Source of the DNA: Chloroflexia bacterium
Lineage (GTDB): Bacteria; Chloroflexota; Chloroflexia; QHBQ01; JADMIH01
Assembly: GCA_038254085.1 (NCBI GenBank)
Contig: JBBSGN010000001.1
Location: forward strand, 1 to 26,963
Reading direction: 5' to 3'
DNA length: 26,963 nt
Shown: positions 1-16,711 of the stretch, in pieces
Position numbering within the stretch: the first letter of the stretch is position 1
How the letters are laid out: each line of letters starts with the position of its first letter
The notes under the pieces: model-generated
The model's input: the letters and a program-made list of their open reading frames with translations, nothing else
The model's database searches: none
What the model was told of the DNA's origin: nothing
Position numbers and translations under genes: made by a program

Positions 1-2006
1 ACATCGTCCTGCCCATACTGTACGGGCTGTTGGTTCTGGGCGTGTCGAGCCTCGTCTATAACCTCGTTATCATCGTACAGCGAGCGCGAGGCAGTCAGAA
101 CAGCAACCGCACCGCCTTCACCTGGAGCCTCGGCGGCGTGGGATTGGTGGCGGTGGCAGGCAACTTACAGGGCGGTCTTCAGATGGTCAGTATCATTGCC
201 CCCGGCCTCTACCGCCCGCTCTTGGACCTTTTTCACGGGTGGGGCCTCACCACGCCCGCCATGACGCGCGTCTTCACCGGCGTTGACTACTGGCCCGTGA
301 GTCGCATCACCCCGCGCACAATAGAGGAGTTCCCTTACTGGATCTTCCTGGTTGGCGACCTGCACGCGCACCTGATAGCCCTCCCCTTCGACGTTGCCGT
401 GCTTGGCCTCGCGCTCAACCTCTTCCTGGGCGCTTGGGAGCACCGAGCACCGAGCACCAAGTACCGAGTCGAAAGTGGCTTATTCGCTACTCGGTATGAT
501 GCCGCTCTGCGCGTCGCTGTGACCGCGTTGGCCCTGGGTGCGCTCGCGCTGACCAACTCGTGGGACTTCCTCACCTATAGCGTGTTGATTGCGGTCCTGG
601 TAGCCCTGGCCGCGGCATATTCCCTTCGCGTCCAGGCGCGTACCCGCCGTTCCGCGCGCGCTCTATTTGGGGCTGGCGTTGGCCTTGCCGTCCTGTTCAT
701 GCTGGCGACTCTCGCTTACGCACCTTACTTTCTCACGTTCAAGACCTTCTACAGCGAAGTCCGCCCCATCGCAGAGAGCGTCAACGGCATGGGACGAACC
801 CACCTCGCCGAGTGGATTATCATCTGGGGCCTGTTCGCCTTCGTAACCGCAAGCTATATCTTCGCGGGCCTGCGCCGCTATCCCTGGGCCGAGGCGTGGG
901 CGGGCCTCGGGCAGATGTTCAGGGGCACACAATTGGCCTCTCACAGGCTAGGCATCGTCGCGGGCATCAGCGGAGCGGGGGGACGCTCTACCGAGACCGA
1001 GCAGCATCTCACCCCAGACCCGACGCGCACCGCCCTTTTTTCTCCCGCCGCAGGGTTACTGGTGCTTGCTGGCGCGATCCTGGTCGCGCTAGCGTGGACG
1101 ATCTCCGGAGAGTGGCTCCTGGCCCTGCTCGTCGTGCTAATTGGGATGATCGTTGCCCTCCAAGTGGGCGCTGTTCGCAATCCCGGCCTGCTCTTCGCGG
1201 GCGTGCTGCTTGCAAGCGCGCTGGCTCTAACGCTCGCAGTAGAGTTGTTCTATGTGGTGGATTTCCAACAGGGCACAGAATGGTATCGCATGAACACGGT
1301 CTTCAAGTTCTACATGCAGGCGTGGGTGCTGTTCGGCGTCGGCTCGATCATAGCCCTCTATGCCTTGCTTGGGCAACGGAGGCTCCCGCTAAGGAGTCCG
1401 GCCAGGTGGCTCTGGCTAGGCGCGTTGTTAGTGTTGCTTGCCGCGTCCGCCACGTTCGTAGTCGGCGGCACCGGCTCGCGGCTTGACGAACGTTTTCCTG
1501 TCCGGCCCGCCGCCCTAACACTCGATGGCACCGCGTTCATGGCAGATAACAGTTTTGTCTTCGGCCCCACAACCAACACCATCACAGTAACACTTGCTTA
1601 TGACCAGGCCGCGTATGATTGGCTGCTCAACAACGCGCGCGGCCTCCCGGTGATCGCCACAGCACCCACCGCCCCCGACCCGGAAGGCATGTTCGTCGCC
1701 ACCTACACCGGCTTTCCAGTCGTGGTGGGCAGTATGCACCAGGAGGAACAGCGTTACCCCGACCAGGTCGCCGAGCGCCGGGCCGCCATGGCCGACCTCT
1801 TCCGCACGCCCGACGTAGCCCGCACTCGTAGCATCCTCGACAAGTACGGCGTAACTTACATCTACCTCGGTCCATACGAGCGGTGGATCGCCCACGACGC
1901 GCCTGCGGGCCTCTCCAAATTCGCTGCGATGACCGGCCAGACGATAGAAGTTGCCTACCGCAACCCCGCCGTGACCATTTACCGGGTGATCAAGGCTGGT
2001 CGTTAG
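1..2006 (+). CDS. DUF2298 / Chlor_Arch_YYY-type polytopic membrane protein, putative GT-C glycosyltransferase (5'-partial)
   Basis: Frame is open from the window edge (codons from nt 3), stop TAG 2004-2006. Motifs EFPYWIFLVGDLHAH, NSWDFLTY, RMNTVFKFYMQAW and TLDGTAFM match DUF2298 as recalled. Many TM segments, then a soluble C-terminal domain ending YxNxxVTIYRV. Confidence 0.85.
   Translation, partial: IVLPILYGLLVLGVSSLVYNLVIIVQRARGSQNSNRTAFTWSLGGVGLVAVAGNLQGGLQMVSIIAPGLYRPLLDLFHGWGLTTPAMTRVFTGVDYWPVSRITPRTIEEFPYWIFLVGDLHAHLIALPFDVAVLGLALNLFLGAWEHRAPSTKYRVESGLFATRYDAALRVAVTALALGALALTNSWDFLTYSVLIAVLVALAAAYSLRVQARTRRSARALFGAGVGLAVLFMLATLAYAPYFLTFKTFYSEVRPIAESVNGMGRTHLAEWIIIWGLFAFVTASYIFAGLRRYPWAEAWAGLGQMFRGTQLASHRLGIVAGISGAGGRSTETEQHLTPDPTRTALFSPAAGLLVLAGAILVALAWTISGEWLLALLVVLIGMIVALQVGAVRNPGLLFAGVLLASALALTLAVELFYVVDFQQGTEWYRMNTVFKFYMQAWVLFGVGSIIALYALLGQRRLPLRSPARWLWLGALLVLLAASATFVVGGTGSRLDERFPVRPAALTLDGTAFMADNSFVFGPTTNTITVTLAYDQAAYDWLLNNARGLPVIATAPTAPDPEGMFVATYTGFPVVVGSMHQEEQRYPDQVAERRAAMADLFRTPDVARTRSILDKYGVTYIYLGPYERWIAHDAPAGLSKFAAMTGQTIEVAYRNPAVTIYRVIKAGR
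438..496. repeat. Heptamer tandem (GAGCACC x3 + AAGTACC) plus inverted arm inside the DUF2298 CDS
   Basis: GAGCACC at 438, 445 and 452, AAGTACC at 459. TACCGAGT (462-469) is complementary to ACTCGGTA (489-496). Confidence 0.8.
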
Positions 2007-2020
2007 TGGGCTTATGGGAT

Positions 2021-4270
2021 ATGTCGTTCGGCTCGCCGGTAGATACGTCGCCTGTTGCCAGTCCTTATAAGACCGGCCCTGTCTCTTTGTCCGCGCCCGA
2101 TCTCCCGACCGCGAAAGCTCCACAACGATACGCTGCTGCGGCCACGAGTCCGCGTAGAGATGCGTGGCCTCGGCACCTGGCGGCGCTGGGGTTCTTCCTG
2201 TTGCTGGGCGTGCTTGCCACCTGGCCCCTCGCCCTACATGCCCTTACCTCGGTGCCAGGTTTCGACAGCCCCTCCACCCGCGCGGGTATGGCCGACCAGG
2301 ACCAGGCGCTTTGGGCGCATTGGTGGCTGCGGGAGACGCTTTTCAATCAGCACACTGACCTGCTACGCACCGATCTGCTCTACTGGCCCTACTACCGCCA
2401 GGGACTCAGCCTGATCCTCTACGATATGCAGTTGCTCCGCACTGCCATTGCGCTGCCGGTGCAGATAATCTTAGGGCTAGCTGCCGCCTACAACTTCGGC
2501 ATCTTTTTGAGCTTCACGTTAGGTGGTTATGGCATGTTCCTGCTAGGGCGAGACCGAGGTCTGAGCTGCCCGGCGTCCCTGTTTGCGGGTGTGGTCTTCG
2601 TGGCTGGGCCGTATCACCTCATGCAGCTCCTCCTGGAGACCTCGCTGGTCGCGGTCGAGGCCCTGCCGTTTGCCGTCCTGTGGACCCGGCGCGCGCTCGC
2701 CGGTGAGCGACGCAGCGCGATTGTGCTGGCCGCTCTGTGCATTGTGTGGGCTAACCTTTCAAGCTGGTACTTTGGTCTGTACGTGCTGCTGGCGCTCTTC
2801 GTCCTCGCGGTCGGACTGGCGTGGCGGCGCAGGGCTGGGGGATGGCGTCAAATCCGCTCTATATTTGCGCGCGCTTTATTTATCGGGGGTCTGTACGGCA
2901 TCCTCTATCTGCCGGTCCTGGTGCCGGTGCTGGCCGAAGTGCTGAACGCGCCGCCCGCATCAAGGCTCTTCCCGTTCAGCGCATCTATACGAGGGGCCAG
3001 CACGCCCTGGTTCAGACTCTTCCTGAACGACCGCAACCCCATTACGCAACCGCCGATCTGGCTCGGCAGCGCTTTCCTCGGCTACACCACAATCGCTCTA
3101 GCCGTGTGGGGCACGATAAGACGTTGGCGACGTGCCCTGCCCTGGCTCATCCTCTTCTTCGTATACCTGAACCTGGCAATGGGGCCGGACCTGCACGGCT
3201 TCGGCAATGTCATCACTATAAACGGCCAACCCGTACCTCTGCCTTATGGCTTGCTCCTCGGCTTGCCCGGAATGAACCTGATCCGCGCTCCAGGTCACGC
3301 CAACGTGATGATCCTCCTCTGCGTGGGGATGCTCGCGGGCCTCGGCCTCGACGCGCTTGCCAGGCTTATGCGCTTCCCGAATTCGCAAGCCACCCGCACG
3401 GTCCCGGCGCTTCTCGCGTCTACCGCGATCCTGCTATCGCTTGCCGAATATTTGGTGCTACCCTTGCCCCTATATGAACTGCACTGGCCTGCGGCCTTCC
3501 AACAAATCGGCCAGGACAACGCGACCTATGGCATCCTGGAGCTACCTATCACCCTCCATGCGAGCAACGACCATCACCGGATGTTCAACCAGATCGCGCA
3601 CCACAAGGGCATCGCGGGCGGATACCTGCCCCGCCCCATACCCGACCCCTACCGCCTGCCCGACAGCCCCTTCGCCCGCTTCACCCAGCCTTACACCACG
3701 ACGGACGTGCTGGCCCAGGACGAGTCCCAGGCGACGGATGCCCTTCTCCAGCTTTACGATTTCCGCTACCTGGCGATCTACCACGACCGCAAGGATTACC
3801 GGGTGGACGACTCCCCCTGGTCCTGGCCCTACCCCACGCAGCCGCTTGAAGACCCCGAAATCACTGTCTACCCAGCCAGGCAAGCGGCGCTAGACCATAC
3901 CTACCTCTACCTCGGCAATAGCTGGAGCATTCCTGAGCGCGACGGCAACGGGGCACGCCGTTGGCTCAATGGCGACTCCGGCTACATGCTCGCGTGGAGT
4001 CCCGGTGAGCAAGGCCAACTCGCCCTCGACCTGGAGTTAGCCCCCAGCGCGCCCGCCGTCAGCCTGCAACTCTCCCTGGACGACCGCTCCATCCTCAGCT
4101 TCGGCATAGAAACTCTATCCCCCACCCACCACATGTCAACCCCGCCCATCGAACTGACACGCGGCTGGCACCGCTTCAAGCTCTACACTCTGACTCCTGC
4201 CACTCCAAGTGCGCTTGGCACATCCCATGCAATAGCCATCCGACTTGCGCGATGGGACAAAAGTCAGTAA
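2021..4270 (+). CDS. Polytopic membrane protein, putative GT-C (YfhO-like) glycosyltransferase, about 749 aa
   Basis: ATG 2021 chosen over GTG 1883, which would overlap the upstream gene. N-terminal DQDQALWAHWW loop, about 12 TM segments, FLGY motif, C-terminal ILELP...HHKGIAGGY soluble domain and a terminal beta-sandwich-like region. Confidence 0.75.
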   Translation: MSFGSPVDTSPVASPYKTGPVSLSAPDLPTAKAPQRYAAAATSPRRDAWPRHLAALGFFLLLGVLATWPLALHALTSVPGFDSPSTRAGMADQDQALWAHWWLRETLFNQHTDLLRTDLLYWPYYRQGLSLILYDMQLLRTAIALPVQIILGLAAAYNFGIFLSFTLGGYGMFLLGRDRGLSCPASLFAGVVFVAGPYHLMQLLLETSLVAVEALPFAVLWTRRALAGERRSAIVLAALCIVWANLSSWYFGLYVLLALFVLAVGLAWRRRAGGWRQIRSIFARALFIGGLYGILYLPVLVPVLAEVLNAPPASRLFPFSASIRGASTPWFRLFLNDRNPITQPPIWLGSAFLGYTTIALAVWGTIRRWRRALPWLILFFVYLNLAMGPDLHGFGNVITINGQPVPLPYGLLLGLPGMNLIRAPGHANVMILLCVGMLAGLGLDALARLMRFPNSQATRTVPALLASTAILLSLAEYLVLPLPLYELHWPAAFQQIGQDNATYGILELPITLHASNDHHRMFNQIAHHKGIAGGYLPRPIPDPYRLPDSPFARFTQPYTTTDVLAQDESQATDALLQLYDFRYLAIYHDRKDYRVDDSPWSWPYPTQPLEDPEITVYPARQAALDHTYLYLGNSWSIPERDGNGARRWLNGDSGYMLAWSPGEQGQLALDLELAPSAPAVSLQLSLDDRSILSFGIETLSPTHHMSTPPIELTRGWHRFKLYTLTPATPSALGTSHAIAIRLARWDKSQ

Positions 4271-4293
4271 CGGGCGGCGCCCACCGCCCCCTA

Positions 4294-4302
4294 TGCTATA
4301 CT
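4294..4302 (+). promoter_or_regulatory. Extended -10 promoter (TGcTATACT), probably leaderless
   Basis: TG at 4294-4295, TATACT at 4297-4302, ATG 6 nt downstream at 4309, no Shine-Dalgarno. Confidence 0.6.
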
Positions 4303-4308
4303 ACCGCT

Positions 4309-5898
4309 ATGGCAGCGTCGCGCACGGAGGCAGTTGCACGCCCGTTCCCGTCGCACTCAGACGGTCTAATAGCGGGCGCGCTCCTACTACTCGGTCTGGT
4401 GGCTGCCGGAGTGCGCTTCAACGACCAATTGGGCGGACTGACGGGGGACAACGCCAGCTACATTCTGCTTGCGCGGGACCTCGTGACGGGCGCACCTTAT
4501 GGCAACGCGGGCTTCCCCTGGGGCTTCCCGGCGCTCCTCACACCTATACTCGCTGTTACCCGACCTGATAACATTCTTGCGGCTATACCCTGGCTGAAGG
4601 CTCTGAGCATACTTCTGTTTGTCCTTTCGCTGCCCCTGATGTACGCCCTCTTCAGAACGCGACAGGGCGCACTCGCATCCTTCACCGCTGCCGCCCTGTT
4701 CGCTGTAAACAACACCGGCCTGCTATATGCGACCGACGTGATGACCGAGATGCCGTACACCTTCGCCAGTTTCGGCGCGCTTCTCTACTGGCAACTGGCC
4801 GTCGTCCCCAGACCGCAAGACTGTGCAAGACCGTTTCCCTGGCGGCAACTGCTGATAGCATCAGTTCTCCTGACCATACCCTACTACCTACGCACGGTCG
4901 GTCTGGCCCTACAAATCGCCGCCGTCCTCACGCTGCTATGGCGCCGGAGGTTTCGCCTAGCCGTGGCACTTGGCGCGGGCCTGGCGCTGCTCGCCCTGCC
5001 CTGGTTGGTCTTCAGCAGCGGCGCGGGCCAACCCAACTACGTCTCGTCCCTCCTGCTGCGCGACCCGTATAACCCCTCGCTCGGCCAAATATCGAGCCTG
5101 GGCGAACTCCTTGCCCGCATCTGGAGCTTCGCTCGGCTCTACATCACCGATGTGTTCCCGCGCATGTTGCTCCCATCGCCCACTCCTGGTGGGGTACTAA
5201 CGGCACTCGCCCCGGCGCTGGTGCTTCTATTGGCGATTGGGCTAGTCCTGCGCCTTCTCAAAGGGGTAGAGCTACCGGAGGTCTACGTGCTGCTCTTCTT
5301 GCTTGTGCTGTTCGCCTGGCCCTGGACCGGCGACCGCTTTCTCCTGCCCGTCTATCCACTCTTACTTCATTACGTCCTCGAAGCGATCACCTGGTTCGCG
5401 AAACAGGTCAAGAAGCGCTGGTGTTGGATCAGCGCCCGCACTGTCGGCTGGCAAACGCTTGCTGGAGCGCTAATAATGGTCGCGGTCCTGCCCAACCTCT
5501 GGCTGGACGGCGCGGCAGCCGCTGATAACGCGCGTTACCTGGCGGGCAACGCCCCAGCCAGCGGCTACACGCCCGACTGGCAGCGATACTTCGATGCCTG
5601 CCGGTGGCTTCGCGAGAGGACCCCGCCGGGCAGCGTGGTCCTCTCGCGCAAGAGCACTATCACCGAAATATTCGCCAACAGACCGTCAGTGCTTATCCCG
5701 CTAATCCCACCCGGCAAATATCCCGACTTTCTGCGCCGCAACCAGATAGATTACATCCTGGAAGACGCCTTCCCCTGGTCGGTCCACACGGTGCAGTACC
5801 TCCGGCCTGCTCTCGGGGCCTATCCTCAGATGTTCCAGTTGGTCCAAACCACCGCCCCGCCTATAACCCGCATCTGGAAGGTTATTCCATCGCCCTAG
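4309..5898 (+). CDS. ArnT/PMT-like (GT39/GT83-type) GT-C glycosyltransferase, about 529 aa
   Basis: First loop GDNASYILLARDL...PWGFP, then TEMPYT, WTGDRFLLPVYP and C-terminal DACRWLRERTPPGSVVLSR...IDYIL, the typical GT-C layout. Start supported by the adjacent -10. Confidence 0.75.
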   Translation: MAASRTEAVARPFPSHSDGLIAGALLLLGLVAAGVRFNDQLGGLTGDNASYILLARDLVTGAPYGNAGFPWGFPALLTPILAVTRPDNILAAIPWLKALSILLFVLSLPLMYALFRTRQGALASFTAAALFAVNNTGLLYATDVMTEMPYTFASFGALLYWQLAVVPRPQDCARPFPWRQLLIASVLLTIPYYLRTVGLALQIAAVLTLLWRRRFRLAVALGAGLALLALPWLVFSSGAGQPNYVSSLLLRDPYNPSLGQISSLGELLARIWSFARLYITDVFPRMLLPSPTPGGVLTALAPALVLLLAIGLVLRLLKGVELPEVYVLLFLLVLFAWPWTGDRFLLPVYPLLLHYVLEAITWFAKQVKKRWCWISARTVGWQTLAGALIMVAVLPNLWLDGAAAADNARYLAGNAPASGYTPDWQRYFDACRWLRERTPPGSVVLSRKSTITEIFANRPSVLIPLIPPGKYPDFLRRNQIDYILEDAFPWSVHTVQYLRPALGAYPQMFQLVQTTAPPITRIWKVIPSP

Positions 5899-5915
5899 AG
5901 AGCGTTCTCTTCCCG

Positions 5916-5967
5916 TAAAAACAAACCCCAAGAGCCGCCGAAGGTGACTTTTGAGGTTTGTTTTTTA
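5916..5967. terminator. Long hairpin between convergent genes, probably a bidirectional intrinsic terminator
   Basis: TAAAAACAAACC (5916-5927) pairs with GGTTTGTTTTTTA (5955-5967), with inner pairing CAAGAG/CTTTTG. A/T tracts flank both sides. Confidence 0.7.
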
Positions 5968-5991
5968 GCTTTGGTGAGCAGAGAAAACCGG

Positions 5992-7707
5992 CTACTGCGC
6001 GGGCGCTTCGTACCACTCGGTGCGCGGGAAGTTGGACGCAGCCTTTGGGGATAGTTGCACGTCGTTGCGCTTGTACACCCAATAGCCCCGGTCTTCCCAG
6101 TATTTGACCTTGTTGTAAAGCGAATATCGCCCCGTGAACCGAGGGTCAGTCATCAGAGGCTCGAATACCGCATTGAACTGCGGCACGCGGTCCGACCCGG
6201 AGGTGAACACCAGGAACTCTGGGTTAGACGCCAGCGCACTGTCGGCGAAACCCGCGGCTCCCCGTTTGTATATCACATCGCCATTGGTAAGCCCGCCCGG
6301 ATTGTCGTCAATCACCCGGAGACCCGAGTAGTAGGCCACCACGCCTATGTCCTGCAACGCCACAGTGGAAGAAGGCGGCGCGTACTGCCCCAGCCACACC
6401 CCCAGCGGCACGAGCGAGCGGTTCTTGGCATCCTCTGCTCTCTGCCCATCATAGCGCGTGCGTGGGGCCATCACCAGCAGGAAGAGCGCTATCGCCGCGC
6501 ACACCCCTGCGACCCCCAGCCAGGTTCGCCACGAGCGCCCCAGGCTTCCTACCAGCCTTAACAGCGCGATGACCGGCCCCTGCGCGTACAGGTAAAGTAA
6601 CGGCAGCACCGGCACCATGTATCTTATCCCAGGATTATACGATTCCGACACGAAATAGAGCAAACTGAGCGCCCCGGCGCAACTCACAATATACCAGTCG
6701 CGCAACCAGGGCCTGCGAAACCAGGCTAGGTCGGCAACAGCGAGGGCAAAGGTTGGCACCAGCAGGTCCCCATAAGCCGAGTAATGCGACCCGCGCGTAA
6801 AGTACGACCCCCAGGTAAGCCGGAGTTGGCTTGGATCGGTAAGAGTGCCACCCAGCCGCGAGAAGAAAGGCGTCGGCACCAGCTGGCCGAAATATTGCCC
6901 TCTCCACCACGTATAGGCCAGGAAAACGAGCGCCAACGTGCCGAAGCTCGCCACAGGCACGGCCCACTGCGATACGTTCGTCGAGCCTCTATGCCTCCAT
7001 GAGTCAACCACCGAAGCCAGCACGAACAACCCGCCGATCGCCATAGGAATCGCGCCGTCGTGGCGAGTCAATGCCAGTAAAAAGAGGGTGGCGGCAGCCA
7101 GCGGATAAGCCCACAGACGCCCGCCCAGCCCCAGCACGGTCAGCCACACCGACACCAGCAGCATGGTTGCGTACCACATCGTTTCCAGCCCGCCCTGCGC
7201 CCACAGCGCGAACGGAGCCGTCAACGCCAGCAGTGCGGTGGCCACGAGCGCCCAACCTCGATGCCGCACCACCTGAAGGGAGAGCAGATAGACCAAACCC
7301 AGGTTCAGCGCGCTCAAGATCGCGCCCAGGTTAGCCGCCCACGTCGGCACGTCGAGACCTAATCGCGCTAGCCCGGCCAGCAGCACGATCCAGGAGAGAT
7401 TGCTGTAACCCTCCACAGGCGGCGCCGCCGCGTTAAACACCAGCCCGTTGCCAGCCGCCAGGTTCTCGGCGTACCTGTAGGTAATATAGGCGTCGTCCGG
7501 CATGTAAACGCCAATGTACCGCTCCAAGGCCAGCAGTACAACCGCACACGCAGCCAGAGCGAGCAACACCACCCAGACACTCACATCGCTGTGTGCTTGA
7601 GATGCGAAAGCCCCGGCTCGTTCCTCAGCCCAGGTATTCATGCCGGTTGCTTGGGGGCCGGTGAGCGCGGGCGGTTTCACAGGTTCGATTACGGTTTTGC
7701 TGCTCAT
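5992..7707 (-). CDS. GT-C membrane glycosyltransferase (DDAYITxRY / AftB-like family), about 571 aa
   Basis: PDDAYITYRYAENLAAGNGLVFN...VEGYSN, GLET, LTRHDG, RYMVPVLP and DIGVVAYYS motifs. ATG 7707 chosen because a promoter lies within the 7731 extension. Confidence 0.78.
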   Translation of the reverse strand: MSSKTVIEPVKPPALTGPQATGMNTWAEERAGAFASQAHSDVSVWVVLLALAACAVVLLALERYIGVYMPDDAYITYRYAENLAAGNGLVFNAAAPPVEGYSNLSWIVLLAGLARLGLDVPTWAANLGAILSALNLGLVYLLSLQVVRHRGWALVATALLALTAPFALWAQGGLETMWYATMLLVSVWLTVLGLGGRLWAYPLAAATLFLLALTRHDGAIPMAIGGLFVLASVVDSWRHRGSTNVSQWAVPVASFGTLALVFLAYTWWRGQYFGQLVPTPFFSRLGGTLTDPSQLRLTWGSYFTRGSHYSAYGDLLVPTFALAVADLAWFRRPWLRDWYIVSCAGALSLLYFVSESYNPGIRYMVPVLPLLYLYAQGPVIALLRLVGSLGRSWRTWLGVAGVCAAIALFLLVMAPRTRYDGQRAEDAKNRSLVPLGVWLGQYAPPSSTVALQDIGVVAYYSGLRVIDDNPGGLTNGDVIYKRGAAGFADSALASNPEFLVFTSGSDRVPQFNAVFEPLMTDPRFTGRYSLYNKVKYWEDRGYWVYKRNDVQLSPKAASNFPRTEWYEAPAQ

Positions 7708-7718
7708 AATACCAATCA

Positions 7719-7747
7719 ATATTATCATCAACAGGTGGGCTATGCAA
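7719..7747 (-). promoter_or_regulatory. Sigma70-type promoter TTGCAT-N17-(TGa)TAATAT
   Basis: Minus-strand -35 at 7747-7742, -10 at 7724-7719 with extended TG. It ends 11 nt before ATG 7707, implying a very short leader. Confidence 0.55.
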
Positions 7748-7756
7748 ACAACAAAC

Positions 7757-7773
7757 GTAGAATCTGGTAGAAT
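7757..7773 (+). promoter_or_regulatory. Tandem -10-like hexamers (GTAGAAT x2); the second is an extended -10 (TGgTAGAAT)
   Basis: GTAGAAT at 7757-7763 and 7767-7773 in an AT-rich divergent intergenic region, upstream of RBS TAAGGAG (7828-7834). Confidence 0.5.
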
Positions 7774-7841
7774 TGTACCTGCCTAACCAAGCCCGTTTCA
7801 CTTCTTCTGCCCCAGGCCAAACCGACGTAAGGAGTATTGCC

Positions 7842-8162
7842 ATGTCCAGTCCGTCATCCGTTCCGGCCAAACCCAACGACCCGGACCAACCGCTCGCCAC
7901 CGCCCCGTTCGACCTCAGCCCAGCGGCAATCACCCCCACACGCGACGAACAGATCGGCCACGCGCTCGCAGCCGAGATACACGACTCCTCTGCGCCCCAG
8001 GACCGCCCCACCGCAACCCGCGACCTCGTCCACGAGATGATCAGGGCCGGCGCCGAGGGCGAGGTCGCGACCGATTTGTTGCAACAAGAGGAGTTACCAC
8101 CTGAACCGTTCACCGACACCGACTACGAAGACCACGAAGCAGCCTCCGAGGTCGAGCGATAG
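7842..8162 (+). CDS. Small acidic Pro-rich hypothetical protein, 106 aa
   Basis: Strong RBS TAAGGAG 7 nt before ATG 7842 and an upstream extended -10. It fills the gap before the next gene and has no TM segment. Confidence 0.7.
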   Translation: MSSPSSVPAKPNDPDQPLATAPFDLSPAAITPTRDEQIGHALAAEIHDSSAPQDRPTATRDLVHEMIRAGAEGEVATDLLQQEELPPEPFTDTDYEDHEAASEVER

Positions 8163-8179
8163 CTGTCATAAGCAACCAT

Positions 8180-9832
8180 TTGCCGTCACCTGATACGCAA
8201 AGAAGCTGGGGTCTGAAGGGGCGGTCAGGTCTGCTCGCCCTGGTGGGCTTTGTCGCCCTGCTTGTGTATGGCCTGCTGATATGGCTCGACTTGCCGTCCC
8301 CTGCGGGCTTGCGCTACGAAAAGCCTCCGGCGGGCCAGGGTCTCGTGCCCGCCCATTGGTGGGACGAAGTGCAAGGGTTGCGCGGCTGGGCGGTCCACCC
8401 TAGAGGGTGGTCATGGGCGCTCATTGATCCTGCCCCGCTCTGGCGCTGGCTGCCCTTGCTGGGACTCGGTCTGGCGGGCGCGCTGCTTATATACGCCTCT
8501 GTCCACTATCGCATCTCGCCTCGATACTCACTCCTTGCCCTTGTGATACTTGGCTATCCAGGGCAACTATCTGCGCTCTGGCTCAAAGACCCCAACCCAA
8601 ACCAGCTACTGTTCGAGCGCGTCCTCAACCGCAGCTTCACCGGCTATTTCACCTCGGCCACCCGCGCAAGCGCCGTTTACACCTTTTTCGGCGGCTACGC
8701 GGACGCCTTTGCCAACGACGACCCGGCCACCCGCCTGTGCGGGCACTGCCGCACGCACCCCCCAGGACCGATACTCTTCTACTGGTTGCCGATCCAGGCC
8801 GTCCAGTCTCTCCCCAGCGACGCACAACGGGGCCTGTGGAACAGTCTGGCAGGCGGGCTCCAAATCAGCGTCCCTGCTCCTCTATCGCCTATGCCACCCG
8901 CCCAGGCCATAGCCGGAGCGTTGGGCAGCCACCTGGTCTTATTGGGCGCTGCCCTCATAGTTATCCCGTTGTACGGGCTCGCCCGACGATTGGCACAGGG
9001 GCAGTGGACCATCTTATTGGCCGCGCTCGGCCTGGTTGTCCCAGGCATCCTTTTAATGAGTCCGGAGTTCGACCAGTTGTACGCGACTGCGACAGCCGCC
9101 CTTTTCTACCTCGCCATTCGAGGTCTCACGGGCGGCAAGAATCAGGCAGCCTGGGGTGCGGCGGCTGGCCTGTGGTTCGCGTTGTGGCTCTACTGGTCCT
9201 TCGGTCTTTGGGTGCTGGTCGGCCCTCTGTTCCTGTTGGCACTGTCCGTCGCGCTCGGCCTCATGCCCGGCCCGGTACATAGGCGGTGGAGATATGTCGC
9301 TGTGTGGGCGGCAGGGCTGACTGTTGGTGTGGCTCTACCCTGGGCTTTGCTCTGGGGCCTCTTCCAGTTTGACGTTCCCCGCGTAGTGCAACTGGCAGGT
9401 GAGCAACACCTGAAAGGCCTCACCGTCCTGCGCCCCTACGCCCCCTGGCTCCTATTCAACCTGGTTGACTTCCTCCAATTCGTGGGCCTACCGTTGGTGG
9501 TCGTCTCACTCGCCACCGCCTTTACGTGGCGCGATACTCACTACGCACAGCCCGGCAACCCCACGGACCCTCGTCGTTCAATCCTCATGCGCTTTATCAT
9601 GCGCACCAACATCTACACGCTCATTTTCTGGGCAACCCTGCTCCTACTCGATCTGTCGGGCACGGTCAGAGGCGAGGTAGGCCGGCTCTGGATATTCCTC
9701 GTGCCGATGGTCCTTATGGGTGTTTACGATGCTGTGGGCCGGGGCCTTCTTGGGACACGCGCTGTCTGGTTGCTCCTCGCTTCCCAGTTCACGGTGTGCG
9801 TGCTTATCGGTGGCCGCTGGCTCACACCCTGA
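8180..9832 (+). CDS. Polytopic membrane protein, putative GT-C glycosyltransferase (THPPG family), 550 aa
   Basis: Large extracytoplasmic loop with GYFT and HCRTHPPGP, then SPEFDQLY, about 11 TM segments and GEVGRLWIFL. The TTG start is uncertain. Confidence 0.7.
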   Translation: MPSPDTQRSWGLKGRSGLLALVGFVALLVYGLLIWLDLPSPAGLRYEKPPAGQGLVPAHWWDEVQGLRGWAVHPRGWSWALIDPAPLWRWLPLLGLGLAGALLIYASVHYRISPRYSLLALVILGYPGQLSALWLKDPNPNQLLFERVLNRSFTGYFTSATRASAVYTFFGGYADAFANDDPATRLCGHCRTHPPGPILFYWLPIQAVQSLPSDAQRGLWNSLAGGLQISVPAPLSPMPPAQAIAGALGSHLVLLGAALIVIPLYGLARRLAQGQWTILLAALGLVVPGILLMSPEFDQLYATATAALFYLAIRGLTGGKNQAAWGAAAGLWFALWLYWSFGLWVLVGPLFLLALSVALGLMPGPVHRRWRYVAVWAAGLTVGVALPWALLWGLFQFDVPRVVQLAGEQHLKGLTVLRPYAPWLLFNLVDFLQFVGLPLVVVSLATAFTWRDTHYAQPGNPTDPRRSILMRFIMRTNIYTLIFWATLLLLDLSGTVRGEVGRLWIFLVPMVLMGVYDAVGRGLLGTRAVWLLLASQFTVCVLIGGRWLTP

Positions 9833-9835
9833 GCG

Positions 9836-10774
9836 TCAGAAGCGCAGGCTGATCGCCGCCCATACCCCTTCGGCCACCATTGCAAACAGGCGGGTGAGGG
9901 CCGCCACCGCCACGCCAAGCGGCAACGGCACCCCTAACAGCGTTGAGAACAGATAGACAAGCACTCCCTCCCTTATGACCAGTCCTTGTGGCACGAGCAG
10001 GCCCAGTGACCCGCCCAGCACGCTCGCGCTGAACAGCCCAACTACGCCCGCAGCCTCACTGACGTATTCCTCGCCACCTAAACCGGCACGCAAGAGCAAC
10101 GCAATTAGCCCGTAGATTAGCCAATTGGCGAAGCAGCCCAATAGTACAGCCATTGTGTCTCGCCTTGAGAGAGCCGTCGCGATGCCTGCCCGCCCCATTC
10201 GTGCAAACAACCAGTTCACAAAGCGAGCGACCAGCAAAGGGCTGAACAACAGAGTTGCTATGGTTGTCACACCCGCCAAGGCGAGATAAGCCCCGTAACC
10301 GGCCAACTGCCGAATCGTCGCCATGCCGATAAGCGCCACAGCCAGCGCACTGCCGGTCAGCAACACCGTCTCCATGGCCGTGCTAGCCGCTGTCACGGTT
10401 ACAGGCACTCCTTCCTTGTCGGCCAGGTAAGCTCGTCCCAGTACGAACCACCACTGCCCAGGAAGATAGCGGGCAAGCCCCGAGTGGAAGTATAGCCGCA
10501 CCGCTCGGCCCCAACCCAGGTGATAGCCCCACGCCCGAATGATACGCCACCAGGGGTACACAACCGTCACCCCGCGCCCCAGCGCCGCCAACGCCGCTAA
10601 CACCAGATAAGCGGGGACCACCTGCCACCTGTACCTGTAATCCCTCATCCCGGACACCTGTGCCCACAGCGCCAGCAGAAACCCGCCGACAATCAGCGCG
10701 CCTAGCCCTGCTCGAACGGCGAGAAGCACTTGCGGCGATCTCCGTAATCTGAACATCACACCCGAATCATCCAT
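9836..10774 (-). CDS. UPF0104 / lysylphosphatidylglycerol-synthase-TM family flippase-like membrane protein
   Basis: YFHSGLARYLPGQWW...GR and VPQGLVIREG motifs with about 8 TM segments. ATG 10774 overlaps the upstream stop; 10756 is an alternative start. Confidence 0.8.
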   Translation of the reverse strand: MDDSGVMFRLRRSPQVLLAVRAGLGALIVGGFLLALWAQVSGMRDYRYRWQVVPAYLVLAALAALGRGVTVVYPWWRIIRAWGYHLGWGRAVRLYFHSGLARYLPGQWWFVLGRAYLADKEGVPVTVTAASTAMETVLLTGSALAVALIGMATIRQLAGYGAYLALAGVTTIATLLFSPLLVARFVNWLFARMGRAGIATALSRRDTMAVLLGCFANWLIYGLIALLLRAGLGGEEYVSEAAGVVGLFSASVLGGSLGLLVPQGLVIREGVLVYLFSTLLGVPLPLGVAVAALTRLFAMVAEGVWAAISLRF

Positions 10775-13583
10775 AGTAATAAGGGGCAATCAGGCCGAGC
10801 ACACAATAACCAGAGAAGACCAACAGCGCATTTATCCACAACCACACTCCCCATGCCACCAAACCGGGGCTATTTCGCCGAACCCTAATGTCCGACCGCA
10901 TGGCAACTCGCTCGCGGACCAAACTGACAACTCGGCCCACCCGCACGCAAAGGGACCACAGCCCACACAAAAGGAGCCACGCCACCGGGATGCTCAACAC
11001 GAACAAGTAGCGCCCCTGTGGGTACGACGCATTTCCCTGCGTCGCCAGCAGCGTCATCTGCTTGGCGAACCCTATCGCTGTCGCGGCGCTGAGAGCTAAC
11101 AGCGAAATCGCCCCAAGCCACTCAATCCCTGACCATTTCCCCCAGTGATGTATGCCTAAATAGCCAAGCCCGACCAATCCGGCCACAGTCAACAGGCCCA
11201 GCGCCATATAAAGCACCGAAGGCAAAGGCACCGACAGCCAACCGAAATCCCCCAAAAACGAGCGGTATTGCCCGTCCGCAAATTGCTCCCAAAGCGCATT
11301 CTCGTTGAACGGCTGGGGATTAGCAATCGCGTCAGCTATCTGGCCGGCGTCTATCGGCAAGAACCGTCTCAGCAAGGGCCGCAGCGTCGTCCCGTCCGTC
11401 TCGGCCGACGGGTTTAGAAGCGTCGGTCTGAATACGGGGTCGTTCCAGGGTCCGCTCGGCGTCACGGCGTTCAACGAAAGATCGTCGAACTCGACCACTC
11501 CGCCACCCGACACGAGCTTGAGGTCTATCTGCTCGGCGCTTTCCGGCACGCGCGAAGTGGCGACCAGCTTTATCCACTCGCCTGCCCGGTCCAGCGACGC
11601 CACTTCGCTCCCAAGCACGCGCCACCCGCTCTCTAGAATCTGTAGCGAAGCGGTAACAGGGCTTGATCCACGAACAGCGATCTCGGATGGTCGTCTTGCC
11701 CAACCCGAAAACGTGACTCTCAAGGCAGGGTGGTACACAGGCGGCACGAGCGACTGGGTGGCGGTCGCCCCTTCTCCGGCTTCTCCGCCAACTCCCAACC
11801 TGATCACGTATGATCCATCGTGCGCGCTCGCAGTTCTTGCCCTCGGCGCGCGCTCGATGGGCACATAGTTGGTCTGCCAACCGGCTACCCCATCATCGCG
11901 TTGGTATGCCAGCACTACACACACTGAGCCTAGCGCAACCAGGCTCGCCACCACCGCCAAAGGCCATGTCCAACCCGCTCGCGCCCTGCCGCCAAGACCG
12001 CCAGTACGCCCCACAAACGCTCTCGTTACCAGCGCCCCACACCACACGAGCAAGCCTAGCGTTAGCAAGGGCACCGAGGCCGCCAGCGCCGTTGACTTCG
12101 TCCACGCACCCACCCCCGTCACCATCGCAGCCAACAGCGCCAACACTAAGCCTCGCGCACCGAACGGCCAACGCGCCAACGCCACCAGTGCCACGAACAG
12201 GGCCGACACGTCCAGTTCAGCCAGAATGTCGTTATTGGCGACCGAGGCGATAAAGGTGTGCATCGGCAATAGGATCACAGTTAGAGGCGAAAGAAGCCTC
12301 AGCAGGCGCACAGGCCCACCGCCCCCCATATCAAGCAGCACCCCCGCCAACCACGCCAAGAACACCACGCCCAGGCTCAACAAGAGAGACACTGCGCGCA
12401 CGACCAACAACGCACCGCCAGGGTCCCGGTAGGGGTCTGCCGGAACGCCGACCGCGCGGACCGCCCGCATTGCCGCCGCGCCGAGCCAATAGTAAAGAGG
12501 CGGTTGGCGAAGCTGTTGGTAGAACCCGATGCCGGGACTTACCAGCGCACCCGGTGTGGCGTCCCCCAATATTCGGCGCGTAAACTCGTGCTGATTCATC
12601 GATTCGCTGATCGCGCCCGCGAGCAGGGGGTCGGCCGCGTTAGCGCCGAATTGGAGCCTCTGCACTTTGCTGTTGTCCATACCGTACTTGTCCAACAGCG
12701 CCACGTAAACAAAGTGCGAATGTTCGTCCGGCCCTTGCCAGGGAGGCGCCAATGTCAGATAAACGACCCCGTTCACCAGCGCCACCGACAGCGCAACCGG
12801 CAGCGACCACCGCACCACCCACAATGCTCTCCTGGTGGGGTCTCTCAGCACTCCGGGAAGTTGCAATACAACCCATACCGCACCCAGCGCGACAATGAGG
12901 TCAATCCCGGCCATCAGCGCAGTGGGAAAATTGGCTGAAGCCGCCCGCGCCAGTTGCGCCCACGCGCTCACCGGCGATGCGCTGTATCGCAGACCAAAAG
13001 CGAAGTCCGCGCGCTCTGCTTTCTGATCGCGGTATGCCGTTCCGCCCGCGTAGGCATCGCCCACCACAGGAGGTCGCCACCAGAACAGCGTTAGGGCGTG
13101 CCCGGGCAAGCCATCCGGCGACTCTATCTGGACGTAGAAGGGTTTATCTTGACTAGCGGCGATAGGAGGAAAGGAGAACAAGTACCAGGGGTTCTCGTCC
13201 AAGCGCGTGCCTTTCTCCAGGCGCGCAGTCGCGATGTCCGGCCCTCGCCCCGGCACGCTCCGCAGATGCAACACCAGCGTGGCTCTCGCTGGTCCCGCTC
13301 CCTGCCTATACGTGCCAACGCGCAGCTCTACGCCTGACAAGCCAGCATATCGCGCGGCAAAACTCTGGCCGAAGCTGTGCCCCGCCAGCAGTTCGCCCGG
13401 TACGCCGTTTATGTCGTCAGACCGCCGTTCCGTCAACGCCGCGTAACTGGTCCACAGCACCAGGGCCAGCCCCACTACAGGTACTAGCCACCACAGCACA
13501 AGCCAATGCCATCTCCGGGTTCCCATGGTGGCGGAGCGCGCATTCGCTGTTATCGCGGGCGGGGGATATGTAGAGGTCGTCAA
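10767..13583 (-). CDS. DUF2142-like GT-C membrane protein with two extracytoplasmic beta-sandwich/CBM-like domains, 938 aa
   Basis: PPWQGPDEHSHFVY, QPPLYY, VANNDILAE, WTKST, FLGDFGWL and QGRYLF motifs. TTG start lies 1 nt after the GT2 stop; ATG 13526 is an alternative. Confidence 0.75.
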   Translation of the reverse strand: MTTSTYPPPAITANARSATMGTRRWHWLVLWWLVPVVGLALVLWTSYAALTERRSDDINGVPGELLAGHSFGQSFAARYAGLSGVELRVGTYRQGAGPARATLVLHLRSVPGRGPDIATARLEKGTRLDENPWYLFSFPPIAASQDKPFYVQIESPDGLPGHALTLFWWRPPVVGDAYAGGTAYRDQKAERADFAFGLRYSASPVSAWAQLARAASANFPTALMAGIDLIVALGAVWVVLQLPGVLRDPTRRALWVVRWSLPVALSVALVNGVVYLTLAPPWQGPDEHSHFVYVALLDKYGMDNSKVQRLQFGANAADPLLAGAISESMNQHEFTRRILGDATPGALVSPGIGFYQQLRQPPLYYWLGAAAMRAVRAVGVPADPYRDPGGALLVVRAVSLLLSLGVVFLAWLAGVLLDMGGGGPVRLLRLLSPLTVILLPMHTFIASVANNDILAELDVSALFVALVALARWPFGARGLVLALLAAMVTGVGAWTKSTALAASVPLLTLGLLVWCGALVTRAFVGRTGGLGGRARAGWTWPLAVVASLVALGSVCVVLAYQRDDGVAGWQTNYVPIERAPRARTASAHDGSYVIRLGVGGEAGEGATATQSLVPPVYHPALRVTFSGWARRPSEIAVRGSSPVTASLQILESGWRVLGSEVASLDRAGEWIKLVATSRVPESAEQIDLKLVSGGGVVEFDDLSLNAVTPSGPWNDPVFRPTLLNPSAETDGTTLRPLLRRFLPIDAGQIADAIANPQPFNENALWEQFADGQYRSFLGDFGWLSVPLPSVLYMALGLLTVAGLVGLGYLGIHHWGKWSGIEWLGAISLLALSAATAIGFAKQMTLLATQGNASYPQGRYLFVLSIPVAWLLLCGLWSLCVRVGRVVSLVRERVAMRSDIRVRRNSPGLVAWGVWLWINALLVFSGYCVLGLIAPYYYG

Positions 13584-13584: not shown

Positions 13585-14613
13585 TTATCTCAATGCGAAC
13601 CGCCGCCCTATACGACGACCCGACCACGCTAATTGCAGCCCGAAGCTCCCCAGCCCCCATGCGATCCCAGCCAGCAGACCAGCCGCCCGCAAGAGCAAGA
13701 GCATCGGTGCGGTCATCCCCACCATCACATCCCGCTTCCCCGCAGTCAACGCAAAGGGCACGACGCTTGCCGCCAAGCCCACTACCGACCCCGCCAACAA
13801 CCGCATCGCCAAACGCGAGAAAGGCACGAACGGTGACGCAGCCAGCACGCCCCCCAACAATAGCATTTGCGCTTTCACGCTTGGCGGCGTGTGCGAGTCT
13901 GTGGCGATGCGACCGGGGTGCAGCGCGACCACCTTCACCTTCCAATAACCGATCCTGAACTTCCGTCCAAAGTACGCGCTCGGCGAATCCACATGGCGGT
14001 GGTACACAATGGCACCTGGTATGAAGCGCAGGTCGTAGCCACGCTCGGCGAGCCGGAACGAAAGCTCCTGGTCCTCGTCAACCAGCAACGTCTCGTTGAA
14101 ACCACCCGTATCCAGAAAGGCATCGCGCCGGTAGGCAGCCGAGTAGGTGTCTATGAAATCAATCCGGTTGTGCTTCGACATGCCCCTATACTTACTCTCG
14201 TACTCGGCCTGCACGAACCTGGCGATAAGGCCCTTCTGCCGGGTGCGATACGTCCCCTTTGCCCCCGCCGCCCCCGCCCGAATAGCTTGCGTGAGCGTGT
14301 AGGCCCACGTAGGCGTCGGCTCGCAATCTGCGTCGGTAAACAGGATAATATCGCCACGCGCCGCTTGGACACCCCGGTTACGCGCCGCCGCCGGGCCACT
14401 GTGCGCCTGCCATACGAGCTTGACCCACGATGAATGCATGGATGCGATAGAGGCCGTCTCGTCGGTTGACCCATCGTCAACCACTACAATCTCGTAAGGC
14501 TCATCGAGTCGCTGCCTTGACAAGGCATGCAAGCACGCATCTAGACTGGAGGCGGCATTATACGCAGGCACCACTATCGAGATATTTGGCTGTCCCTGAC
14601 GCGCTTCTTCCAT
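13585..14613 (-). CDS. Glycosyltransferase family 2 with C-terminal membrane segments, 342 aa
   Basis: ISIVVPAYN, EIVVVDDGSTD, GPAAARNRG, FTDAD (DxD), GGFNE and EDQELSFRL. Confidence 0.92.
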   Translation of the reverse strand: MEEARQGQPNISIVVPAYNAASSLDACLHALSRQRLDEPYEIVVVDDGSTDETASIASMHSSWVKLVWQAHSGPAAARNRGVQAARGDIILFTDADCEPTPTWAYTLTQAIRAGAAGAKGTYRTRQKGLIARFVQAEYESKYRGMSKHNRIDFIDTYSAAYRRDAFLDTGGFNETLLVDEDQELSFRLAERGYDLRFIPGAIVYHRHVDSPSAYFGRKFRIGYWKVKVVALHPGRIATDSHTPPSVKAQMLLLGGVLAASPFVPFSRLAMRLLAGSVVGLAASVVPFALTAGKRDVMVGMTAPMLLLLRAAGLLAGIAWGLGSFGLQLAWSGRRIGRRFALR

Positions 14614-14684: not shown

Positions 14685-15611
14685 CTAGTCTACCATCCGT
14701 TTCATCTCCTTACGGCGACCCAAACCGTGAACCCAGGCAAGGCCATCGCTGAAGGGCTGTTGGCGCATCCCCCGAAACGCCCCAGAGCCAGCCACGCTGT
14801 CCGTCCCGTTCCTCTCACTCAAACTGCTAAACTGCTCCGGCGAGACCTCCCAGAACACCTCACAAGCGCCCCGGAGACGGTAGAGGCGGGCCAGGTATCC
14901 CCGGCATCGTCGCACCCACCCGAACGATTCTCGCTGTGTACGGTATTCTTCAAGCGCACGGCGCTTCAACCCCGAAACCGCCGTCGTATCAACAATCACG
15001 TTTGCGAGAATGGGGGTCAACGGCACCTGCACTTCGTACACTCTTACGGCGCGACAACACCCAAGGCCAGTAGCCGCCAGTGCCCTCGCCACCTCGCTGG
15101 CTACCGCTACATGCTCTGGATGATAGTCCACACAAGATGTCGTGTACACCAACGTCGGCGCAAGCCGCTCAATCACCTCCCTGAGCGCGGCTTGCATCTC
15201 GTCGGGCGTCCAACGGGACTCGGCAAACCCAAGTTGGACTACCTCCGAGGGCTTCAGCCATGACAGGGCCGCAGCCATCTCGCTGGATCGCCGTCTTGCC
15301 ATCTCATCCCGGCCCAGACCGAGGGCACGGGAGCCTCCACCGTCGGTCACGACCACTACGTATATAGCGTCACCTGCTAGCGCGTGCAAAGCGATGGTCC
15401 CTCCGCAGCCCAACGTTTCGTCGTCCGGGTGCGGCGCGACCACCAGCACTCGCTCACCTCCATTGGACCGCCACCGGGCGGCACGTGGCCGCAAGCACCA
15501 ACCGGCTAGCGCAAAACAGGCGCGCCAAAACCCTTCGGCGAGCGAGAAAGAGATCCGGCGTGCAATCCACTTCGCCGCTCGGCGCATACTGCTCTGTTCT
15601 ATGCCCATCAT
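14685..15611 (-). CDS. PIG-L / LmbE family deacetylase, about 308 aa
   Basis: VVAPHPDDETLGCGG, TDGG, RRSSE, HPEH and AxxxYRTQ motifs. ATG 15611 overlaps the GNAT stop (ATGA). Confidence 0.88.
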   Translation of the reverse strand: MMGIEQSSMRRAAKWIARRISFSLAEGFWRACFALAGWCLRPRAARWRSNGGERVLVVAPHPDDETLGCGGTIALHALAGDAIYVVVVTDGGGSRALGLGRDEMARRRSSEMAAALSWLKPSEVVQLGFAESRWTPDEMQAALREVIERLAPTLVYTTSCVDYHPEHVAVASEVARALAATGLGCCRAVRVYEVQVPLTPILANVIVDTTAVSGLKRRALEEYRTQRESFGWVRRCRGYLARLYRLRGACEVFWEVSPEQFSSLSERNGTDSVAGSGAFRGMRQQPFSDGLAWVHGLGRRKEMKRMVD

Positions 15612-16711
15612 ACCACGTCGAAGTCGCCGCCGGTCAGCATCCAATTTTGCGGCTTGGACAGCCAGGCAACATCAAGGCGCGGATCAAGAGGCGCCATGTC
15701 AAAGCTGAACGCCCCACGCCCCCGCCTGAACCCACCCAATCGTAGCAGCCCATCCAGCGCCGAGCCGGGACTAGCTGTCGCTAGCACCGCGCCCGCCCCG
15801 CGCACCCACAGATCATCAAGCGCACCAAGCATCAGAGCAGAGGCCACCCGCTTCGCCCCCGGCGCGGTGAACAGATCAGCCAGGTATCCTGTTAGCCTCT
15901 CCCCCTCTTCTGCCCAGCGGTATGCCAGGTAGCCCGCCGGCTCGCCACCCGCATACGCGATCAGCGTCTTGTACGCGCCGTCGTGCGCTTGCAGGTAACG
16001 CCAGTTCACCCATTTGCTATCGCGCACGAGCAGGTTGGCATATTGAGGCGATACGCTGCTCCAAATGTCGTCCACCTCGGCGCCCGCAAACTTGATCTCT
16101 CTCACCTCTATTCCTTCGGCCGTGCGCGCCAGATGTCTACGCCAAACCTCCCGCCTCGGCCGCGAGGCCAGCGAAGCTAATAATACCGCCCCCGGCCTGA
16201 TCGCTGCAGGCACTCTCCCCGAACGGGCCACTCTCTCCCACCTTAGCAACACCCGCATCCAGGCCAGGGGAAAGAGCCTGACCCACCCTAGCGCGACGGT
16301 GCGCGACCCCCACTGTTCGTTCGGCAGGCCCAGCACAGCCGCCACGCCCGCTTGCGCCCACGAGGCATAGGCCGCCGTGCCAAGCGCACTCAGGACGCCT
16401 CTTCGCCGGAAGTCGGGAGCGGTCATTGTGTCAACCGACACCATCACATCCCGTACCACTCCCCGACTTTGCAACCGCACCGGAATCCCGGCATACTGTC
16501 CAACAACCTGCCCATCCGTCTCCGAGACGGCCACCCACACGTTCTCGACGGGCGCTGGCAGCCCCTTTAGCTTCCACCGCCACCACCCCACGCTCCGGTG
16601 ACGACCGAACACGGACGCGAAGAGCGATACCAACTGCGCTTCGTCGCTCTCTCTATACGGCCTGATATACCAGCCACGTCCGGCGTCTGCCCTTCGGTCA
16701 ACGCTTTCCAA
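15608..16711 (-). CDS. GNAT-family acyltransferase with tandem GNAT folds, 367 aa
   Basis: IRPYRESD, SVDTMTAPDFRRRG (acyl-CoA motif A), GLPN and RDSKWVNWRY. RBS GAGGAGGAG precedes the TTG start. Confidence 0.85.
   Translation of the reverse strand: MESVDRRADAGRGWYIRPYRESDEAQLVSLFASVFGRHRSVGWWRWKLKGLPAPVENVWVAVSETDGQVVGQYAGIPVRLQSRGVVRDVMVSVDTMTAPDFRRRGVLSALGTAAYASWAQAGVAAVLGLPNEQWGSRTVALGWVRLFPLAWMRVLLRWERVARSGRVPAAIRPGAVLLASLASRPRREVWRRHLARTAEGIEVREIKFAGAEVDDIWSSVSPQYANLLVRDSKWVNWRYLQAHDGAYKTLIAYAGGEPAGYLAYRWAEEGERLTGYLADLFTAPGAKRVASALMLGALDDLWVRGAGAVLATASPGSALDGLLRLGGFRRGRGAFSFDMAPLDPRLDVAWLSKPQNWMLTGGDFDVV

Follow-up and report, generated by a model that had tools for sequence, protein, structure and literature searches.

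Extracytoplasmic glycosylation is well described in several bacterial settings. Three-component systems combine a lipid-sugar synthase, a flippase and a GT-C glycosyltransferase, as in the GtrA/GtrB/Gtr-type systems, CsbB/GtcA/YfhO, the streptococcal and lactococcal side-chain systems, and the GT136 pentofuranose systems described by Kelly et al., in which the GT-C enzyme carries a carbohydrate-binding module (CBM) (PMC11127046). In mycobacteria, several different GT-C paralogues of the Aft and Emb families build arabinan, and within this set AftB uses D62 as catalytic nucleophile, with R221 and R372 as phosphate-stabilising arginines (PMC12041299). DUF2142 proteins are found in connection with rhamnose-rich wall polysaccharide in the S. 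thermophilus rgp locus and as lactococcal WpsI and WpsJ, which have been proposed as polymerases or PSP-transferases (PMC12599335). The open-access literature that names DUF2298 or TIGR03662 assigns no function to that family. The present analysis concerns a stretch of 26,963 nucleotides from a Chloroflexia bacterium (contig JBBSGN010000001.1), referred to as the window, in which positions 1-13583 are filled by six long open reading frames encoding the polytopic membrane proteins A to F.

The six genes quite probably form a species-specific cluster of anciently diverged GT-C genes whose products work independently or cooperate loosely, located beside a module of a family 2 glycosyltransferase (GT2), a flippase-like protein and a DUF2142 protein. 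The members would each act alone or combine in varying ways, as opposed to forming a fixed line of six steps, and as a cluster they do not constitute a new kind of machine. The original prediction had proposed an undescribed system operating as a stepwise assembly line, with conserved co-occurrence of the genes as its preset test; such co-occurrence was not found. Orthologues of A to E are dispersed in related genomes, indicating a species-specific cluster and not a conserved new glycosylation machine.

GT-C assignment of the six proteins

The designation of all six proteins as GT-C-like is supported for A to E, through predicted structures for B and C, homology to AftB for D, a PMT_2-like family for E and a profile link to B for A. 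F is likely to be GT-C as judged from its match to DUF2142, a family which we take to be a member of the GT-C clan. The architecture described earlier, six multi-transmembrane proteins of 530-940 aa within 13.6 kb, agrees with a hydropathy scan that gives about 8-14 hydrophobic segments in each. The acidic first-loop motifs are likewise present and conserved in their families (DQD in B, GDNASY in C, DDAYITYRY in D and PDEHSH in F), with B D93, C D47, D D79 and F D286/E287 as the conserved acidic residues. The soluble C-terminal or inserted domains correspond to a CBM-like sandwich in B, a cap in C and two soluble stretches in F. All six reading frames are intact, with family motifs conserved. 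Pairwise BLASTP among the six proteins returns no match better than E 0.01, indicating that the genes are not recent duplicates. The earlier exclusion of a recent tandem amplification thus holds, and on this comparison the six genes are anciently diverged.

Protein D is a clear homologue of AftB. D has zero matches in Pfam and NCBIfam, even at E 10, and its family profile, built from 53 homologues, matches Mycobacterium chubuense AftB (Protein Data Bank entry 9dlf, chain C) at E 1.3e-36, the alignment spanning AftB residues 39-425 and 520-577. D79, R222 and R369 of D, all invariant or nearly so, align with D62, R221 and R372 of AftB; within the DDAYITYRY motif D79 is invariant and D78 is retained in at least 90% of the 53 homologues. 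JGI names homologues of D arabinofuranosyltransferase. The AftB-like family, presumably equivalent to CAZy GT89, extends to proteins named GT39. Relative to AftB (GT89; 9DLF/9DLH) and the Aft/Emb set, D shares the DD motif and both phosphate-binding arginines, while C, B and A appear as distant relatives with the same layout of membrane core and periplasmic cap. The CBM of B has counterparts in EmbA-C and AftD, and in both cases several different GT-C paralogues occur per organism. The differences are that the present host lies outside Mycobacteriales, that no DprE1 was found and that the genes are not kept as a cluster.

Protein C also has zero matches in Pfam and NCBIfam, even at E 10, and a sequence search of the Protein Data Bank with its family gives 0 hits. 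The family is narrow, comprising 29 detectable homologues that are nearly all unnamed Chloroflexia proteins. The AlphaFold model of C (pLDDT 89.8) contains a C-terminal alpha/beta cap, and its Foldseek matches at ranks 1-47 are all GT-C proteins, including STT3, AglB, PglB, ALG12, ALG9, ArnT, DPY19, AftD, Pmt4, AftA, AftB and Emb. VIA-align gives Z 24.1 to AglB (root-mean-square deviation 4.0, 427 residues aligned), 23.7 to STT3, 23.2 to PMT and 19.8 to AftB. In the GDNASY motif, G46 and D47 are conserved in at least 90% of 26 homologues, and D47 is placed by the model at the N-terminal tip of helix 46-60.

Protein B represents a large family of 3,686 representative relatives at E<=1e-3, with almost no Pfam cover. 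B itself shows only a sub-threshold PTPS_related match in Pfam, and among 52 family members just a few reach PTPS_related or PMT_2. Its AlphaFold (AF2) model (pLDDT 86.1) matches AftD, AglB, STT3, PglB, AftA and ArnT in Foldseek, with VIA-align Z values of 24.2 to STT3 and 22.5 to AftD. Residues ~630-750 are predicted as a CBM35/CBM6-like beta-sandwich, with VIA Z 9.6-9.9 to CBM35-type modules, and D93 of the DQD motif is invariant among the 52 homologues. The check suggested with the original prediction, a Foldseek comparison with GT-C folds, was run on the confident B and C models, and the high-Z matches are all GT-C enzymes. In these models the likeness of B and C to STT3 and AglB is at the level of fold only. 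The STT3 Pfam family has no match in any of the six proteins, and the motif WWD[YWF]G occurs in none of them. An archaeal-type N-glycosylation system, which the suggestion of a possibly archaea-like pathway implied, was rejected on these two results.

Protein A is a member of DUF2298 by its match to Pfam PF10060 (E 1.7e-60; 205.8 bits, cut-off 27.8). The match to TIGR03662 reaches 293.3 bits against a cut-off of 300.25, the query being truncated at its 5' end. The window holds the C-terminal 667 aa of A; the ~130-180 aa at the N-terminus, including what is presumed to be the catalytic loop, are cut off by the end of the contig. Full-length orthologues of ~800 aa are present in two relatives (G028 and G034), and in the A orthologues D137 of the first loop is near-invariant. 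Their near-invariant PDLW is aligned by hhalign with the DQD of B, and the A-family profile matches the B family with a probability of 97.3% (E 1.9e-11). A sequence search of the Protein Data Bank with DUF2298 gave nothing useful. The family, also matched in the Haloferax and Methanosarcina control genomes, is here connected through profiles with that of B, for which the model shows a GT-C fold. In Chloroflexia, DUF2298 is often fused to PMT_2 and arranged in tandem pairs. It frequently lies within giant open frames of 1,400-2,870 aa (loci L080-L105), and in the source genome PMT_2 and DUF2298 share a single 2,100-aa frame (L112, G000:C21:385-9673).

Comparison of family profiles with hhalign connects C with D (98.8%), C with B (94.4%), D with B (91.8%) and B with A (97.3%). 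These links indicate that A to D belong to one distant superfamily with the AftB-like layout of a membrane core followed by a C-terminal periplasmic cap. By the same profile evidence, C is distantly related to the AftB-like family.

Protein E has no Pfam or NCBIfam match, even at E 10. PMT_2 (PF13231) is matched by 15 of 42 E homologues, with a best E of 4e-9, and the E-family profile shows a weak match to AglB (E 6e-5) over transmembrane segments 3-6. Its protein-atlas neighbours include PMT_2 clusters at a score of 0.98, and the family has the conserved loop motif HxRTHPPGP. Protein F matches PF09913 (DUF2142) with E 5e-14 and 52.3 bits against a cut-off of 30.1. In the hydropathy scan its soluble regions are a ~170-aa N-terminal stretch and ~220 aa inserted in the membrane part. 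D286, E287 and H290 of the PDEHSH motif are invariant in 23 homologues. Atlas neighbours of F carry DUF2142 with or without PMT_2, and atlas clusters exist that carry both PF09913 and PF13231. A sequence search of the Protein Data Bank with the F family gave only weak CBM-like matches (E 0.2), and BLASTP of F against a DUF2142-annotated distant homologue of D gave no match.

Distribution of the genes among related genomes

The relatives tallied are 41 genomes, including four unpublished ones (G016, G021, G022 and G032). G032 is the source of one D orthologue; the profile and folding alignments were made without sequences of these four. Genus g3 belongs to another family than the source genome, and G024, G011 and G004 belong to the same genus as the source.

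D has orthologues (64-73% identity) in seven g3 genomes and in a single genome of the source genus, G024, and tblastn of all cluster proteins against the flanks of six of them, up to 20 kb, detected no other cluster gene. A metagenome scan with D yielded one 8.8-kb contig, on which D is the only cluster gene. Orthologues of C are found in one of 25 other species of the source family and in four g3 genomes, never on the contig of D. B orthologues occur in 3 of 40 relatives, all g3, E orthologues in a few g3 genomes and A orthologues in two genomes. F orthologues, in contrast to this patchiness, are present in all 18 same-genus genomes searched (42-55% identity); at E<=1e-40 they turned up only in the source family and one neighbouring family. 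A paralogue of F with 50% identity lies elsewhere in the same genome (G000:C97:5096-7804).

The orthologues of A to E are dispersed in G024, G026, G028, G034 and G037. In G026, an assembly of 8 contigs, B (12.9 kb) and D (1.675 Mb) lie on contig C2, C (10 kb) and one E orthologue (512 kb) on C6, a further E orthologue (624 kb) on C3 and F (230 kb) on C4. Five orthologues were found in G028, on four contigs, where only B and an F-like gene adjoin. The closest species holding orthologues of both C and D is G024, and their neighbours there are unrelated genes: the D orthologue is flanked by genes for an LTD/dockerin protein and an Nramp transporter, that of C by genes for a PilS-like protein and for an M1 peptidase. 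Given this dispersal, the source genome is the only one of those searched that carries the six-gene array. The sole adjacency among relatives of the six is the one in G028 (L074, G028:C54:20852-26588), where a B orthologue (59%) stands beside an F-like DUF2142 gene (37%) on the same strand.

For the patchiness of A to E, patchy loss is as likely as a recent horizontal transfer. GC content is uniform along the window, and A to E share 50-68% identity with their g3 orthologues, much as the nearby cytochrome b gene does (62-66%). For the fused cytochrome b/c gene (22400-23797), orthologues passing E<=1e-60 were found in only 5 of 24 same-genus genomes (67-77%) but in 6 of 7 g3 genomes (62-66%), indicating that patchy gene content is general in the source genus.

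The adjoining module and the layout of the window

The window constitutes the whole of contig C1 in an assembly of 923 contigs and 4.01 Mb that is 72% complete. The features of the array and of the genes that follow it are given in the table. They are arranged in at least four transcription units on both strands: A-B-C forward, D reverse, E forward, and the flippase-like gene, F, GT2, deacetylase and GNAT genes reverse. The F and flippase-like genes overlap by 23 nt and the double-GNAT and deacetylase genes by 37 nt. Promoter and terminator scans were uninformative.

Table. Positions and predicted products of the six-gene array and its neighbours in the window
Feature	Positions	Strand	Description
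A	3-2006	+	DUF2298 / Chlor_Arch_YYY membrane protein; 5' end cut by contig end
B	2018-4270	+	750-aa predicted GT-C-fold transferase with periplasmic cap and C-terminal CBM35/6-like beta-sandwich
C	4309-5898	+	529-aa predicted GT-C-fold transferase with C-terminal alpha/beta cap
D	5992-7731	-	579-aa AftB-like (GT89-like) GT-C transferase, by sequence homology
E	8243-9832	+	529-aa PMT_2-like (GT39/GT83-like) polytopic protein
Flippase-like gene	9836-10789	-	317-aa polytopic protein, LPG_synthase_TM-like; between E and F
F	10767-13583	-	938-aa DUF2142 polytopic protein with two soluble regions
GT2	13585-14613	-	PF00535, E 1.9e-32; upstream of F
PIG-L/LmbE-type deacetylase	14685-15644	-	PF02585, E 1.8e-24; same direction as GT2 and F
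Double-GNAT acetyltransferase	15608-16711	-	PF13527, E 1.4e-14; PF00583, E 1.3e-7

The GT2 protein shows two C-terminal hydrophobic segments (residues 267-324) in the hydropathy scan. A two-helix C-terminus is typical of lipid-sugar synthases, and the protein is a candidate polyprenyl-phosphate-sugar synthase supplying a donor. Its closest solved proteins are generic GT2 enzymes, and DPMS, GtrB and ArnC match only its N-terminal ~120 aa. The flippase-like protein, a candidate flippase of the carrier-lipid sugar, matches no solved structure in the Protein Data Bank.

Only GT2, F and the flippase-like gene stay together in relatives. In G011, their orthologues (57%, 53% and 52% identity, respectively) lie within 15 kb, the flippase-like orthologue ~6 kb from that of F; in G004, GT2 and F orthologues lie near each other. 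In these two genomes the GT2 orthologues (56-57%) are 3-4 kb from those of F, and neither the deacetylase nor the double GNAT is present beside GT2 and F. The G011 locus (L064, G011:C48:30000-49999) reads in order Polysacc_synt_2, Wzy_C, GT2, LysM, GH5, the DUF2142 orthologue, a methyltransferase, a GH5 with three SLH domains and the flippase-like gene; by these annotations it looks like a wall-polysaccharide locus.

The combination of GT2, putative flippase and GT-C corresponds to the already known three-component scheme and is not new. It would share with those systems the logic of lipid-sugar synthase, flippase and GT-C, with a two-helix GT2 directly upstream of the DUF2142 gene and a small polytopic protein downstream, and the presence of a GT-C with a CBM recalls the GT136 pentofuranose systems. 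It differs in that the putative flippase is LPG_synthase_TM-like and not GtrA, SMR or MATE, that the GT2 is not demonstrably GtrB-like, and that six GT-C genes are present instead of one. With WpsI/WpsJ and the rgp proteins, F shares the match to PF09913 and, through its same-genus G011 orthologue, a location within an apparent wall-polysaccharide locus; F is much larger than those proteins: its 938 aa include an extracytoplasmic domain at the N-terminus and a soluble domain inserted in the membrane part.

GT-C repertoire, donor supply and competing explanations

The source genome contains ~58 GT-C-like loci in its 4.01 Mb, an unusually large GT-C repertoire for a genome of about 4 Mb. It comprises 33 PMT_2 genes over the cut-off, 11 of the B family, 7 AftB-like, 4 DUF2298 and 2 DUF2142 genes, together with C and E. 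At this density 0.2 loci are expected per 13.6 kb and 6 are observed (Poisson P(>=6) = 7e-8; about 2e-5 allowing for all windows), and clustering of GT-C genes exceeds chance. Smaller GT-C arrays lie on contigs C17, C21, C15, C16, C33, C55 and C2, indicating that such arrays recur in this genome and do not mark one special pathway. The array on C17 consists of three PMT_2 genes and an AftB-like gene.

With regard to the donor, the source genome encodes an equivalog of decaprenyl-phosphate phosphoribosyltransferase on contig C262 (G000:C262; L109:733-1725), which scores 286 bits against the NF008977 cut-off of 234. The same model is over its cut-off in 35 of the 41 relatives, with a single match each, and in the loci examined the gene has no GT-C neighbour. 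DprE1 (NF053785) is found in 0 of 41 genomes, with the control matched in Corynebacterium; arabinofuranosyl specificity of D is therefore not supported. The presence of the phosphoribosyltransferase together with the absence of DprE1 suggests lipid-linked ribofuranose rather than arabinofuranose, and by analogy with the pentofuranose three-component systems (PMC11127046) the AftB-like enzymes could plausibly draw on a lipid-linked ribofuranose donor.

In the mechanism considered most likely, each enzyme would take its sugar from a polyprenyl-phosphate carrier at the outer face of the membrane and add it to an envelope glycan or glycoprotein. Catalysis would fall to the invariant aspartate at the tip of the first extracytoplasmic helix, and the periplasmic cap or CBM domains may hold the acceptor. 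One donor, mainly for F, is probably synthesised by GT2 and then flipped across the membrane by the flippase-like protein.

Several observations weigh against a loose, species-specific cluster of GT-C genes. A, B and C are separated by gaps of only 12 nt and 39 nt, and with such packing the six genes could share their regulation in this organism, their products acting on a single polymer. Most related assemblies are fragmented, so that adjacencies could be missed; the contiguity of G026 and G028 suffices to establish the dispersal. Structure models cover B and C of the six. F is tied to GT-C solely through the Pfam family DUF2142 and its atlas co-occurrence with PMT_2, and its profile gives no significant hhalign alignment with the other five families. 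In the adjoining module, the GT2 is nearer to generic or processive GT2 enzymes (MftF/EpsD-like, Glyco_tranf_2_3) than to GtrB, DPMS or ArnC, which makes its role as lipid-sugar synthase a guess, and the flippase-like protein falls below the PF03706 cut-off of 33.4 (E 3.3e-7, 30.5 bits).

The strong clustering, the tight packing with A, B and C nearly contiguous on one strand, and the candidate donor module next to them are also what would be expected if the six enzymes were one dedicated stepwise extracytoplasmic line, fed by the GT2/flippase-like module and building a single surface glycan, S-layer glycoprotein or glycolipid with one linkage per enzyme. The mycobacterial Aft/Emb set that builds arabinan (PMC12041299) provides a precedent, and orthologues of A to E tend to share g3 genomes (G026, G028 and G034). 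We nevertheless judge a single line unlikely. The six genes are not together in any relative and lie megabases apart in the near-complete G026; the C and D orthologues of G024 stand in unrelated contexts; and in the window the genes are split among at least four units on the two strands. Co-occurrence inside one genus (g3) does not count as independent evidence. It is similarly improbable that some of the six are not transferases at all, being instead GT-C-fold proteins with another role, such as a glycan polymerase or ligase, a non-catalytic scaffold like PIG-U, or a decaying paralogue. The roles proposed for the lactococcal DUF2142 proteins WpsI and WpsJ (PMC12599335), the appearance of the glycosylphosphatidylinositol-transamidase subunit PIG-U among the structural matches of B and C, the incompleteness of A in the assembly and the lack of an obvious acidic residue in the canonical first loop of E lend themselves to this interpretation. 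Against it stand the intact frames with their conserved family motifs and the conserved catalytic aspartate positions in B, C, D and F; moreover, polymerase or ligase action by a GT-C protein would still be glycosyl transfer from a lipid-linked donor.

A pentofuranose pathway, in which polyprenyl-phosphate ribofuranose or an epimer, supplied by the phosphoribosyltransferase, would serve D, C and perhaps B and A in building a furanose-containing envelope polymer, as a counterpart of mycobacterial arabinan or of the GT136 systems, is a possible though doubtful alternative. The homology of D to AftB with its catalytic triad, the relationship of C to D, the widespread phosphoribosyltransferase equivalog and the C-terminal CBM of B, which resembles those of the GT136 founder and of Emb and AftD (PMC11127046), are consistent with it. 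Conversely, DprE1 is lacking throughout the 41 genomes, the synthase is not beside any GT-C gene in the loci examined, donor specificity of GT-C enzymes is not readable from sequence, and the AftB-like family also reaches proteins named GT39. A more specific version, that the lineage builds a ribofuranose-derived envelope polymer through the phosphoribosyltransferase and the AftB-like GT-C enzymes (D, C, perhaps B and A), with the array as the local concentration of that route in this species, would be a long shot; if true, it would represent an arabinan-like biosynthetic scheme outside Actinobacteria.

The analysis has several implications for these families and their host. A fold and a probable mechanism can be assigned to unannotated families, namely those of C and B and, by profile link, DUF2298, and AftB-type enzymes with an intact catalytic triad occur well beyond mycobacteria. 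Together, the findings point to a chemically complex envelope that is assembled outside the membrane in this Chloroflexia lineage.

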